Part shown: one piece after another, positions 11,246-46,650 of the stretch | Numbering within the stretch: the stretch's first letter is position 1 | Layout: each line of letters opens with the position of its first letter | Virus record (IMG/VR): IMGVR_UViG_3300035365_000057 | Span: 12,555 to 76,554 of that record | Length of the DNA stretch: 64,000 bases | Source: a virus | Taxonomy: Duplodnaviria > Caudoviricetes | Strand: one strand, 5' to 3' | Notes under the pieces: generated by a model | Told to the model about the DNA's origin: nothing | What the model saw: the letters and a program-made list of their open reading frames with translations, nothing else | Database searches by the model: none | Translations under genes and position numbers: made by a program

Positions 11246-11408
11246 AATCTCTAGTCTATTTAAAAATTGAATTAAAGGTAGAAAGCTTTCTTGATTTTTA
11301 GTACTTTCCTTGAGGAGCTACCATTACCTCCAACTACCTCTTCACTGTTGATCTTAACCTAAGAGGACATACTCTGCTATCAGACTTCAAGTATGCAGTT
11401 TTTATTTG

Positions 11409-11480
11409 TCGCCCCAGTCTCGATTCGAACGGACAACTCGAAGGTTAGAGCTTCGCATATTACCTTTATACTATGGGGCA
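11409..11480 (-). tRNA. Amber suppressor tRNA (anticodon CUA), probably Gln-charged
   Basis: TGCCCCA/TGGGGCG acceptor; anticodon arm CGAAG-CT-CTA-AC-CTTCG; T loop TTCGAAT; T stem has one bulged A; CCA not encoded. Confidence 0.9.
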
Positions 11481-20968: not shown

Positions 20969-21498
20969 TCGTACGATTGAGTTTAGGTTTGACTCATAAA
21001 ATAAAGTAACTAATCTTAAAGCAAGCAACGGAGAATAACGCTGTACCAAAACAGAGGACAATGGTGCTTGACAGTATGACACTAACTGATAAATAATGTG
21101 TTGTGAAAATTAATTAAAATTCATGAATTTTACTCAAGCTATATAGTGTGAGTAAACGTACAGCCGCACGTTAGTGGGTTACAGTTCGTATTCTAGCAAG
21201 AAAAGAATATTGTATTGCCGAAAACTGGGGACATGTAAATAATACGTAGGTTCCGTACACATGTTGAAGAAACCAATCGAATAGTAAGCATAGAGAAATA
21301 GGCAAACGACCAGCCAAAATGGTAGTGCTTACAAATAAAAAAGATAAGAGAAAGTGATATCCGTGCATATATAGATATCTTAGTATAGTTAAGGCCTCAA
21401 GCTGCACTGAGCAAATATATTACACTTATCTTTATTAAACTCTTTACTGAATTGCAGCCTAAATATGTCAAAGGTAGCGCATGAAAGTAAAGAGTTTC

Positions 21499-21679
21499 TA
21501 CACTGTGAGAATCAGTGTCAACTTTGTGGGGCTTATATTTAGATGAGCGCACAAAAGTAAACCTATATTGTGTGTAGCATTTCGAAAAATTATATTTAAA
21601 CTAGCTAGATAATTCGTAGAAAGAGTGATATCAGTATAGAGAGACTTTTGCATCTAATATTAGTGCAGAGAAATCAAAG
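21499..21679 (+). ncRNA. Hatchet self-cleaving ribozyme 1 (with ~100-nt insertion)
   Basis: P1 ACACTG-TGAGAAT-CAGTGT, CAA, CTTTG, TGGGGCTTATA, TTAGATG/CATCTAA stem, TATTAGTGCAG, closing CAAAG. Confidence 0.85.
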
Positions 21680-21783
21680 ACAAGATTATATCCTGAGTGT
21701 ATAATCTAGTAAACTACTAGAGGCTGGTCACCTCGGCAGGAAAGCGCGACCATGGAGAGGTTTGTGGTAGTACCTCTCCGCTC

Positions 21784-21889
21784 TTTATGGTGAGAATCCA
21801 TGACAAGCATGTGGGGCTTATATCTTTATGAGAGACAATACGGTAAAAATACCCTTCATAAAGTATTAGTGCGGACTTAAAAATCATGC
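21784..21889 (+). ncRNA. Hatchet self-cleaving ribozyme 2
   Basis: P1 TTATGG-TGAGAAT-CCATGA, CAA, GCATG, TGGGGCTTATA, CTTTATGA/TCATAAAG, TATTAGTGCGGACTTAAAAAT, closing CATGC. Confidence 0.9.
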
Positions 21890-25163: not shown

Positions 25164-25234
25164 CTTTTTTTATTTGTGTCACTTTACCTTTTTATGTTTT
25201 AAGTCATACTAGTCTGTGAGGATAGGTATGACGT

Positions 25235-25353
25235 CCTCAGAAGATGACAAACCTGTGGGGCGTAAACTATGTCCTATTTTAAGAGTTAGGCTTGCATAAC
25301 TCAGTAAATCAGGATGCAAGAACATAGTGATCGTGCGGACGTTAAAATCAGGT
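25235..25353 (+). ncRNA. Hatchet self-cleaving ribozyme 3
   Basis: CCTCAGAAGATGACAAACCTGTGGGGCGTAA...GATCGTGCGGACGTTAAAATCAGGT, near-identical to the published hatchet construct blocks as I recall them; ACTATGT/ACATAGT insert stem. Confidence 0.92.
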
Positions 25354-26784: not shown

Positions 26785-26995
26785 CTAAAACTTAGTATAC
26801 ATGGTGGATTCAGTCAACCTAAGAACTATTTTATAACCAGAATCCTAATGGAAGCCCAAAAGGCAAGAGTACAAGGGACCATACAACGGTCAACCAATTT
26901 ATATTGGTCTGGAGAAGAGCAGGGGTTATCTACTAAATAAGACGTACGAATAAGTAGAAATAGTTCTTTTTATTTAAAAATCAAAATTAAAAAAC

Positions 26996-38721: not shown

Positions 38722-38797
38722 TCGCATATAGCTCAGTTGGTAGAGCCGCAATACTAATACTGTGTGATTTGCGTGGGTTCGAGTCCCACTATGCGAT
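38722..38797 (+). tRNA. Atypical tRNA with irregular anticodon arm (AAU/Ile or unresolved)
   Basis: TCGCATA/TATGCGA acceptor, GCTC/GAGC D stem, GTGGG-TTCGAGT-CCCAC T arm; 3-4 extra nt between D and T arms. Confidence 0.75.
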
Positions 38798-38821
38798 CGA
38801 TAATCCCCAAAATATATTCAT

Positions 38822-43668: not shown

Positions 43669-44271
43669 ATGATATACAGTACAGAATTAGCAAACAAGAT
43701 TGAAACTATCGATAACAGTAATAAATATCTTGAAGCAGGTATTCATGAAAACGTATCTTTAGTAAGTGCAAGAACAGAAAAATCTATTAACGGTAATACG
43801 TTCTTAGAAATTAAGTTCGAAAAGGATGGTAAATCATTAGTTCATACTGAATGGGAATCTAACAAATTTCCTGAAATGACTGAAGAAGCATACCAGGAGA
43901 GAGTATCTCGTCAGGTTAAGCGTGTACTTCAGATTTTGAGCTGTTTCTATCCTAAAGAAGCACTTGTGTTTGCAGGAGCAACTTATAAAGAATTTGCAGA
44001 GTGGGCTGCGAATCTATTAAATGCTGCAGATAAGACGAAATTAGTAAGAGTAAAGATTGTATATAACAATAAGGGATATACTACTTTGCCTAGCTATTGT
44101 AAGTTTACTTTCATTGAACCTATGGAATTACCAGAAGGTGAAAAGAGTAAGATTACAATTCTGAATATCGATCAGATAACTCGTCCTGTTGTAGCAGATA
44201 ACGAAGCAAAAGAAACAAATCCTTTGGAAGGAACTACAGAAACATCAACTAACGATGATCTGCCTTTCTAA
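43669..44271 (+). CDS. Single-stranded DNA-binding protein
   Basis: Acidic tail ending NDDLPF; follows the Sak4-like gene. Confidence 0.7.
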   Translation: MIYSTELANKIETIDNSNKYLEAGIHENVSLVSARTEKSINGNTFLEIKFEKDGKSLVHTEWESNKFPEMTEEAYQERVSRQVKRVLQILSCFYPKEALVFAGATYKEFAEWAANLLNAADKTKLVRVKIVYNNKGYTTLPSYCKFTFIEPMELPEGEKSKITILNIDQITRPVVADNEAKETNPLEGTTETSTNDDLPF

Positions 44272-44438
44272 AGATTAAAACAAAATAAGCCGCCTACGCT
44301 AGGCATATATAGCGACACGAGGATTAGTATACCACACTATGAAACTATCTAAGATAAGTCAGAATAAGTGATTACAAAATAGTATACAATCCTCGTTTTT
44401 TAGAAAAAAAATAATATCAAAAACGATTGTTTATAGTC

Positions 44439-44514
44439 TGTGGTTTAGCTCAGTGGTAGAGCGACAGTTCTTAGTAAGCTGTAGGTCGTAGGTTCGAATC
44501 CGGTACAACCACGG
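44439..44514 (+). tRNA. Atypical tRNA (6-bp anticodon stem, loop CTTAGTA; 2-nt bulge in T stem)
   Basis: TGTGGTT/AACCACG acceptor, GCTC/GAGC D stem, ACAGTT/AGCTGT, GTAGG-TTCGAAT-CC(GG)TAC. Confidence 0.7.
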
Positions 44515-44563
44515 GTCAACGTTGGAGTTGCTATAAAAGGTAGTTTTGATATTTTTAAAAAAA

Positions 44564-45074
44564 GGACTTTTAGCTCAGTCGGTCAGAGCATTTAGATTAA
44601 AAAAATATGCAAAAAATGAAAAAATACGATATAGAAAACGTAATAGATTTACGCGATAATTAGAACTTAACTTGGAAACAAATTGGAAATCTTTTAAAAA
44701 TCTCTCCAGAAACATTACGAAAAGCATATAAAAGAATAAAAGAAGAAAAGACTTCGCATTAGATAAATCCGAATTCTTATATTTTTCAAAAGAAAAGAGG
44801 TTTGGAAAGAAAAAAACAATTTGTAAAAGATTTAGGTGGAAAATGTCAAATATGCGGTTATAATAAAAATATAGCAGCGTTAGAATTTCATCACATACAA
44901 CCAAGTACAAAAAAATTCCAATTAGATGTAAGACACTTATCAAATACAAATATACAAACATTAAAAGAAGAAATAGAAAAATGTATATTAGTGTGTGCTA
45001 ATTGTCATAGAGAAATTCATTATGCTGCATAACTCATAATCTGAAGGTCGTAGGTTCAAGCCCTACAAGGTCCA
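44564..45074 (+). tRNA. tRNA-Met(CAU) interrupted in the anticodon arm by a 436-nt insertion
   Basis: 5' half 44564-44596 GGACTTT-TA-GCTC..GAGC-AT-TTAGA; 3' half 45033-45074 CT-CAT-AA-TCTGA-AGGTC-GTAGG-TTCAAGC-CCTAC-AAGGTCC-A. Confidence 0.9.
44607..45032 (+). CDS. HNH endonuclease with N-terminal HTH inside tRNA-Met (141 aa, two TAG read-throughs)
   Basis: MQKMKKYDIENVIDLRDN(TAG)NLTWKQIGNLLKISPETLRKAY...SH(TAG)...GGKCQICG...LEFHH...CANCHREIHYAA. Confidence 0.88.
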
Positions 45075-45093
45075 CAATTAAACCATATATCAT

Positions 45094-46065
45094 ATGCTAT
45101 ACGATACAACTAAAATACAAGAAGAACAGCAAGTTACGTTAGAATGGATACTTTCTAAAGTAACTGAATATGATATATACTCAGCGTATATTGGTAATTT
45201 TAAAGTAGGAATGATCTATAACAGTCCTTTTAGACAGGATAAAAATCCTTCATTTGGCTGTTATTACAGTAGAACGACGAAACAACTAATGTTTAAAGAT
45301 CATGGTACAGGTGATTGCGGTAATGTAATTAAATTCGTCTCATTACTTACCGGTTTAACTAATTATTCAGATATACTCAATAATATAGTTAATAAGCTTA
45401 AAATTACTAATAATACGCAACTCGTTAGCTCTAAGCAATACATATCGTCCAAAGAGACAGTAATTGGTGTTGTCCGACAAGACTTTACTCTAACTGACAC
45501 CAATTACTGGTCTCAGTTCAATATATCATTAGATACATTGAAAAAATTTGGAGTAAGTAGTATTAAATATTATTTATGTGACGGTATTGTTAAGGGTATT
45601 TACAAGGATACAAATCCTATGTACGCATATAAGGTCTACAATCATTTTAAAATATATCGACCTTTAGCAGATAAATATACGAAATGGCGTAATAACCTGA
45701 CAGAAAATGATATTCAGGGGTTTAAACAGTTACCTAAAACTGGAGATATACTCATTATTACAAAGAGTATGAAAGACGTCATGTGTTTATACGAAATGGG
45801 TATACCAGCAATAAGCCCATCATCAGAAAGTACGTTTATTCCAGATAAGGCTTTAGAACAGCTTAAAAAACGTTTTAAACGCATTATAATACTTTTTGAT
45901 AGAGATAAAGCTGGTGTTAAATATCTTCGCAAAATAAGCGTTAAAACAGGCTTAGAAGGATTTCTTTTAAATAAGAAATTTAAAGCAAAAGATGTATCGG
46001 ATGCTATTAAAGCTAATGGATTTGAAAAAATTAAAAGTTGGATTTATAAAGAGTTAAAACTATGA
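45094..46065 (+). CDS. DNA primase (Toprim)
   Basis: SPFRQDKNPSF...FKDHGTG zinc-finger-like region; ITKSMKDVM; ILFDRDKAG Toprim DxD. Confidence 0.88.
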   Translation: MLYDTTKIQEEQQVTLEWILSKVTEYDIYSAYIGNFKVGMIYNSPFRQDKNPSFGCYYSRTTKQLMFKDHGTGDCGNVIKFVSLLTGLTNYSDILNNIVNKLKITNNTQLVSSKQYISSKETVIGVVRQDFTLTDTNYWSQFNISLDTLKKFGVSSIKYYLCDGIVKGIYKDTNPMYAYKVYNHFKIYRPLADKYTKWRNNLTENDIQGFKQLPKTGDILIITKSMKDVMCLYEMGIPAISPSSESTFIPDKALEQLKKRFKRIIILFDRDKAGVKYLRKISVKTGLEGFLLNKKFKAKDVSDAIKANGFEKIKSWIYKELKL

Positions 46066-46286
46066 ATACAGTAAATAAAATATTCAATGGAATTCGTAAA
46101 ATAATTGCTTTTCCTTTTAAAGCAATTGGTATTATTACTATTGTACTTGGTACACTGATTCTATTAGGTGGATTTAGTATTTATGGTAATATTGATAATG
46201 TGAAAAAATCAATAGCAGATCTAAAAATTGAATTAGAAAATACCAAAAATGAGATAGAAAAAGCAAAGAAAGAAGAAAAAGAGTGA
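46062..46286 (+). CDS. Small membrane/coiled-coil protein
   Basis: 74 aa, hydrophobic segment then heptads. Confidence 0.6.
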   Translation: MNTVNKIFNGIRKIIAFPFKAIGIITIVLGTLILLGGFSIYGNIDNVKKSIADLKIELENTKNEIEKAKKEEKE

Positions 46287-46650
46287 AGGTCTTGTTAAGA
46301 ACGCCACTCCTAACGAATTCGATGGAATAAAATTTCGTAGTAAACTTGAAACATATACATATAAAAAGCTGAAAGAAGCAAAAATAGATGCTGAATATGA
46401 AAAGCATAAATTTGAGCTACTTCCAGCTTTTAATTTTCATGGTGAAAAAGTAAGAGCAATTACATATTTACCAGATTTTGTCGGAAAAAACTTTATAATT
46501 GAATGTAAAGGATTTCCGAATGATGCCTTTCCTTTAAAGGAAAAACTATTCAAACATCTGCTCGTGGATATACTCCCAGATAGTATGTATTATGTAGTAC
46601 ATACTCAAAAACAAGTCGATAAATTAATTAACGAATTGAAAAATCTATGA
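46249..46650 (+). CDS. T7 endonuclease I-like PD-(D/E)xK nuclease/resolvase (133 aa); codon 3 is TAG; missing from ORF track
   Basis: ATG-AGA-TAG-AAA...DGIKFRSKLE...TYLPDF...IIECKGF; TGA overlaps next ATG at 46647. Confidence 0.82.

Follow-up and report, generated by a model that had tools for sequence, protein, structure and literature searches.

A split tRNA-Ile2 gene before the primase gene of a crAss-like phage as a probable unspliced, tRNA-shaped frame for an HNH endonuclease

Why would a phage keep both halves of a tRNA gene around a nuclease gene, and are the halves ever joined? The window, by which we mean the whole stretch of 64,000 nucleotides analysed here, comes from a gut crAss-like phage (Suoliviridae/Loutivirinae), and its nearest named record is cr4_1. 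The late genes of this phage read TAG as Gln, and partial recoding of late genes has already been documented for the crAss-like group (PMC7886860). Directly before the DNA primase gene, a tRNA gene is split by an open reading frame for a predicted HNH endonuclease. A preliminary description of this locus had put forward, as its lead idea, a tRNA intron made of an ORF only and spliced by proteins, and, as a second option, a homing element aimed at tRNA genes. The features that bear on the question are these:

43669-44271: 200-codon hypothetical gene, the upstream neighbour of the split tRNA
44317..44401, plus strand: long hairpin and T-tract, conserved in relatives, where a tRNA-shaped frame comes directly after it
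44439..44513, plus strand: degenerate Thr(AGU)-like tRNA, its anticodon stem with 2 extra nt and its T-stem distorted
44541..44548, plus strand: possible Bacteroidota -7 promoter box, 15 nt 5' of the tRNA 5' half
44564..44596, plus strand: 5' half of tRNA-Ile2(CAU), with the acceptor 5' strand, the D-arm and the 5' anticodon stem with one extra U
44597..44615, plus strand: A-rich HNH leader, without a spare tRNA or promoter gap, unlike sister cassettes
44616..45032, plus strand: predicted endonuclease of 138 aa, HTH plus HNH (McrA-like, Zn-binding), its C-terminus shortened to HYAA
45033..45074, plus strand: 3' half of tRNA-Ile2(CAU), with anticodon loop C32-A38, the 3' stem, variable loop, T-arm, acceptor 3' strand and discriminator A
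45094..46065, plus strand: DNA primase gene, with a tRNA-shaped slot directly 5' of it in all relatives examined
11408..11480, minus strand: CUA (amber suppressor) tRNA, which would be required for reading the TAG codons of the HNH gene

By position only, the 200-codon gene is SSB-like. Boxes of the -7 type occur at chance frequency, and the one listed is missing in the related lineage L306; the Thr(AGU)-like tRNA is present in strain L098 and absent from L306. The hairpin and T-tract, 5' of the slot, hold nested and variable inserts (window 44317-44401 and L016-L097). Elsewhere in the window, Rfam detects three hatchet ribozymes and one RAGATH-9 RNA (21496-21889, 25233-25353 and 26810-26968), and L098 has a NUMOD4-HNH gene 3' of its primase gene (L098:4621-5133) that is missing from the window.

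Taking out 44597-45032 gives a cloverleaf, as had been described. ARAGORN recognizes it as a CAU tRNA with 7/7 acceptor pairs, a full T-arm and an extra U in the 5' anticodon stem, and the rejoined halves are identical to an uninterrupted phage allele (L108) at 67 of 75 positions. The border between tRNA and insert can shift by 1-2 nt, and 44597-44598 may be tRNA positions 32-33. The identity first given, tRNA-Met, has to be changed: the rejoined tRNA has both A3-U70 and C4-G69, which are marks of Ile2 (PMC1635315), and it matches Ile2-type Bacteroidota CAU tRNAs at 62-63 of 75 positions as compared to 45-46 of 75 for fMet, which served as the Met side of the comparison. For the intact L108 allele, the best E. 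coli match is tRNA-Ile. By these sequence marks, the split gene is tRNA-Ile2(CAU). An assembly artefact or one-off was rejected, as the element is common to 16 protein cluster members and three lineages, and an origin from two adjacent tRNAs trimmed by deletion was dropped because the acceptor stem pairs throughout and covaries.

The insert was reported to be a 10-nt leader and a 141-codon ORF that starts at 44607 and whose TAA abuts the 3' half. The general layout of leader, HNH ORF and abutting TAA stands, but the start, length and leader do not. We place the start at 44616, giving a protein of 138 aa and a leader of 19 nt, because L098 has ATG 44607 out of frame and L306-L309 lack it; HNH homologs beginning at the MKKYD position support this choice. 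The HNH domain is matched by PF01844 (E 8e-7) with a weak N-terminal HTH, a sequence search of the PDB returned McrA at E 0.005, and in a fold search HNH folds were nearest, weakly (E > 0.1). The protein cluster comprises 16 variants at 90-100% identity in which the Cys, His and Asn motif residues of the HNH are invariant, and the pN/pS of 0.06-0.17 indicates purifying selection. The ORF is intact and sits outside any self-splicing element, as is typical of free-standing nucleases.

Both in-frame TAG codons that had been noted are there, at 44661 (codon 16) and 44760 (codon 49), with TAG read as Gln. The surrounding block, described as free of TAG, is nearly but not wholly so: a resolvase and a few other ORFs have TAG. 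In the HNH gene, TAG makes up 2 of 9 Gln codons, compared with ~2% for the early block (P about 0.02). TAG16 is kept in 3/3 lineages, while L098 and L306 do not share TAG49. Several TAGs occur in homologs from recoded phages, and since one of these homologs (L102) has TAG at the codon equivalent to TAG16, the amber codons may just go back to a recoded donor. It follows from the reading frame that the full-length nuclease would depend on amber suppression, so it probably appears once the phage CUA tRNA is active, and late-only expression by means of the amber codons is plausible. The resolvase-like gene (window 46249-46650) has an early TAG within an otherwise standard-code block, as does the L306 version of this gene.

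Could the insert belong to a known class of intron? That it is neither a group I nor a group II intron is borne out. No group I core (RF00028) matched the window element even at E 10, Rfam returned no match to group II domain V/VI, the non-coding part of the insert is only 19 nt, and the last base of the insert is A, C or T in the possible registers, not the terminal G of group I. A bulge-helix-bulge (BHB) intron was rejected as well, in agreement with what had been said of the geometry: the junction is predicted as a 9-bp helix, a 6x5 internal loop and a 6-bp helix. The pairing of the insert ends fared less evenly. Alone, the 6 bp first pointed out are near chance (p 0.08-0.26) and are broken one-sidedly in L306, but a closure of 12 bp in two helices is above chance against shuffles (p <0.001-0.007) and, more weakly, against real neighbouring DNA (p 0.01-0.13). 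Because the ORF starts at 44616, this pairing does not join the start codon with the last codon, as had been thought. Nesting of the element within an outer tRNA was also rejected, as an A/T tract and the primase leader border the element, and outer halves are absent.

We then asked where the nuclease belongs. Among loci of this HNH family, 135 of 187 have a tRNA within 400 nt. The closest homologs lie in cassettes with a recurrent layout: an orphan 5' half of an AUA-reading tRNA, a complete spare tRNA, a leader, the HNH gene and sometimes an orphan 3' half. Two kinds of spare occur, diverged CAU tRNAs and UAU tRNAs that are rewired and have covarying stems, and a whole or partial spare of one of these kinds was found within ~130 nt before the ATG in 10/10 distinct full-length contexts, i.e. 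those at 59-67% identity with upstream DNA present (L100, L101, L102, L106, L110, L111, L112, L193, L296 and L298). Many cassettes retain orphan Ile halves. The HNH stop coincides with U36-A37-A38 of the CAU loop in five of them (L111, L195, L197, L295 and L296), while in the window it comes 7 nt earlier, and the 3' orphan of L101 has 31 nt in common with the window 3' half. These halves are ragged, with 5' halves ending anywhere from ~21 to 33 and 3' halves missing or beginning at 30-35: L101 is without tRNA positions 24-34, and L106, L112, L196 and L298 are without a 3' half. Judged from what is left of them, the halves of sister cassettes often cannot be rejoined into a tRNA.

In the window, the insertion falls at positions ~30-33 of an AUA-reading tRNA and the nuclease belongs to the cassette HNH clade. 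The intact spare is missing, with only a 19-nt leader in its place in all three lineages; the element thus looks like a spare-less derivative of the cassette, not a full member. In a tree of only 84 columns, whose inner forks are unresolved, the window HNH falls with most cassette HNHs in a clade with 98/92 support, apart from intron-borne HNHs. The latter include group I introns with HNH-superfamily ORFs in tRNA-Asn(GUU), which occupy one fixed anticodon site and keep 4-5 of 5 stem pairs at nine loci (L229, L232, L234, L246, L251, L261, L262, L266 and L271); the five of these nine that were tested against Rfam are all group I, at 70-98 bits. The distribution of the window nuclease is patchy, with no HNH at the slot in 89 relatives and homologs at 60-67% identity in unrelated phages. 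These comparative data agree with the second option, an element that homes to a tRNA gene, with Ile2 replacing Met as the target.

The same survey turned up other unusual tRNA loci. The rewired tRNA-Ile(UAU) has its anticodon hairpin directly after the acceptor strand and a D-loop-like GG stretch between this hairpin and the T-arm; copies occur at L002:628-712 and L101:2862-2945 and in L102, L112, L162, L195, L197 and L298, and 14 of 22 pairs covary in 8 copies. In L176 (around 1690-2330) an HNH sits in another bare tRNA frame, Phe-like and without a recoverable anticodon loop, which a 17-bp inverted repeat closes. At L285:2577-3085 a tRNA frame is split by a short leader and an unrelated nuclease-like ORF; its ends are complementary and its anticodon arm is degenerate. 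Finally, a tRNA-Lys(UUU) at L101:1679-2265, in a phage that encodes Rnl2, has a 513-nt insert by ARAGORN intron mode, which gave no match in an Rfam scan and is likely a group I intron.

What does the position before the primase gene hold in phages that lack the nuclease? In 83 of 89 HNH-less relatives, a clean acceptor and T-arm lie 14-23 nt before the primase ATG. The parse was lenient, and six rows with an ambiguous 5' strand (L093 twice, L095, L299, L301 and L303) were left uncounted. The acceptor and T-stems of this slot are paired in ~10 unrelated sequence versions, and the middle of the frame is 10-104 nt long. ARAGORN finds no canonical tRNA in the slot of the HNH-less relatives, nor do they have a canonical anticodon arm there. 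The split tRNA has the same spacing, with 19 nt from the end of its 3' half to the primase ATG, and in L306 it is preceded by the same hairpin and T-tract. The predicted fold of the unspliced RNA is itself a frame of the slot type, with acceptor pair probabilities of 0.7-1.0, U36-A38 paired, a middle of ~480 nt and a partly paired anticodon. Thus the features that characterize t-elements are found here: an acceptor and T-arm kept by covariation, a fixed distance from a gene and an anticodon arm that is free to vary. A further tRNA-like element, called Ile(AAU) by ARAGORN, lies 5' of the DNA polymerase gene (window 38722-38798); in L306 its orthologue (L306:4327-4399) keeps the frame, has a tetraloop and has lost the anticodon loop. 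This element is probably also a frame, not a decoder.

Element DNA could be compared in three lineages, those of the window, L098 and L306; exact-pattern scans of viral contigs for the element gave no match, and additional copies were located through the protein. Between the window and L306, 5 of 77 sites in the halves differ, while synonymous pS is 0.24 (P about 0.001), and one acceptor change is compensatory (U6-A67 to C6-G67). Numbers are small, but the changes in the halves are in loops, keep pairs or, once, break the D-stem (U12-A23 in L098). Across the three lineages, the CAU loop, the extra U and the anticodon stem show either no change or changes that preserve pairing. By a rough estimate, the unpaired anticodon-loop positions changed (1/4) at about the drift expectation, and therefore nothing points to additional selection on the anticodon. 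The preliminary description had named decay of the tRNA halves in relatives, together with the absence of a spliced or reassembled tRNA, as the sign of a simply inactivated tRNA. Such decay is seen in the wider family only; in the window lineage CAU is intact and the halves appear not to be decaying but to be conserved beyond neutral expectation.

The reading we prefer, to which we give a probability of about 0.6, is that the locus is an unspliced tRNA-shaped frame, probably a processing mark, that carries an amber-dependent nuclease as an oversized anticodon arm. Based on the relatives, a free-standing HNH cassette, normally a spare AUA-reading tRNA plus the HNH gene, would have entered tRNA-Ile2(CAU) at ~31-33. 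With the spare missing in the window lineage, whether lost or never acquired, the halves would have come to flank a bare ORF. The RNA would remain unspliced, with the tRNA frame of acceptor, D-arm and T-arm in place and the anticodon arm stretched into a long stem that holds the ORF. This frame would fill the fixed pre-primase slot, which would need just the top half of a tRNA, and this seems to be the reason why both halves have been kept. We infer, by analogy with t-elements (PMC1920247), a processing role for the slot: most likely, it would be recognized by host RNase P and 3'-trimming enzymes, and the 5' end of the primase message would be set in this way; such cuts would also free a nuclease mRNA with paired ends. 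We count several points against this reading: the retention of the CAU loop, extra U and anticodon stem would also be predicted by splicing, an Ile2 gene is absent from the slot of HNH-less relatives, and an ancestor with the spare still in the pre-primase slot was not found.

The alternative that survives best, though we consider it unlikely, is a plain insertion scar, whose halves would have no RNA function and would be kept as homology arms refreshed by homing or recombination among strains. Orphan halves do flank many sister cassettes, the adjacent Thr-like tRNA is degenerate, and between the window and L098 the pS of the HNH gene is 0.21 as compared to 0.04-0.08 in neighbouring genes, which suggests allele exchange. 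However, a scar accounts poorly for the compensatory acceptor change and for half divergence below neutral, nor would it explain the exact placement in a slot occupied by a paired frame in almost every relative, and the relatives are without an intact Ile2 allele from which the arms could be refreshed.

Splicing by proteins, which we regard as quite improbable, would have an endonuclease cut both junctions and host RtcB or another ligase join tRNA-Ile2 with its extra U, while the HNH would give mobility. The locus would then be an ORF-only phage tRNA intron, sealed by RtcB and yielding tRNA-Ile2 and a free nuclease RNA, that arose from a cassette trading its spare for splicing. Such a process would fit halves that are under selection and rejoin into a near-canonical tRNA with CAU intact in all three lineages, as well as the 12 bp of pairing between insert ends. 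Bacteroides, the host group, has RtcB, which was the positive control of our search, so ligation by host RtcB is possible in principle. Phage tRNA introns of unknown mechanism exist (PMC6784885). On the other hand, without a BHB, the 5' cut would be inside the 9-bp helix and the 3' cut in the 6x5 loop, and no cutting enzyme for tRNA junctions is evident. EndA was not found in the phage's own record (77% complete), Rnl2 and RtcB were found neither there nor in five complete relatives, and the cr4_1 annotation does not list an RNA ligase. The broken D-stem pair of L098 and the closing helix broken without compensation in L306 also count against splicing, sister cassettes at the same site cannot yield a spliced tRNA, and relatives manage without any decoder in the slot. 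With enzymes not found, no BHB and pairing not conserved, the lead idea of the preliminary description is left with no positive support.

A domesticated late nuclease, in which the HNH would cut tRNA-Ile2 genes of the host or of competitors, the frame would stabilise or sequester its mRNA and TAG16 would delay it, is very doubtful as a full account: purifying selection on the HNH in 16 variants though sister phages are without the presumed target, TAG16 in all three lineages and host-type Ile2 genes that match at 62-63/75 positions speak for it, but one retained TAG is expected by chance at this divergence and the donor-like L102 also has TAG at that codon. This idea is partly compatible with the frame reading preferred above.

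How does the locus compare with known systems? SegB of T4/T6 is likewise free-standing, associated with tRNA genes and not borne by an intron (PMC2330249; PMC13096335). However, SegB is a GIY-YIG enzyme between intact tRNA genes, whereas the window gene encodes a putative HNH nuclease and interrupts a tRNA gene, and relatives of this nuclease come with a spare tRNA. Some group I introns in tRNA anticodon loops (e.g. L229, L232, L234, L251 and L271) likewise have an HNH-superfamily ORF in the loop; unlike them, the window element is without a ribozyme core, terminal G or fixed site, and its HNH is of a different clade. Archaeal BHB introns can hold endonuclease ORFs (LAGLIDADG) closed by terminal stems, without a ribozyme. 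The window resembles them in having an ORF closed by terminal stems and no ribozyme, but it lacks a BHB, no EndA was found, the host is bacterial and the nuclease is HNH, not LAGLIDADG. Plant mitochondrial t-elements and tRNA punctuation (PMC1920247) offer a tRNA-like fold beside an mRNA end with a dispensable decoding arm, as in the window, whereas the frame described here is in a phage, holds a 138-codon ORF and is putatively processed. The tRNA introns of Lak megaphages, in the portion of the source accessible to us, also represent a non-ribozyme insert in a tRNA gene of a TAG-recoded gut phage, but that insert is tRNA-like and a nuclease ORF is not mentioned in this portion, while the window insert is ORF-only and without an outer tRNA (PMC6784885). 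Taken by its gene content and fold, the element would at present probably act as a free-standing homing endonuclease of the SegB type within a t-element-like frame. We found no published description of this layout, of tRNA-breaking cassettes that carry a spare or of tRNA-shaped marks in crAss-like phages, in a search that most subscription papers lay outside.

One practical consequence is that split phage tRNAs spotted by eye or by ARAGORN intron mode need not be introns. If our reading is true, a tRNA gene could harbour a homing nuclease at no cost, with neither splicing nor a spare, the tRNA being needed by the phage as a shape only. This would link tRNA-breaking cassettes that carry a spare with tRNA-shaped marks before crAss replication genes, and frame middles of 10 nt, about 100 nt and about 480 nt would represent a natural series for tRNA punctuation in phage. 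More speculatively, tRNA-shaped mobile introns could plausibly descend from a tRNA frame whose anticodon arm is an HNH gene.
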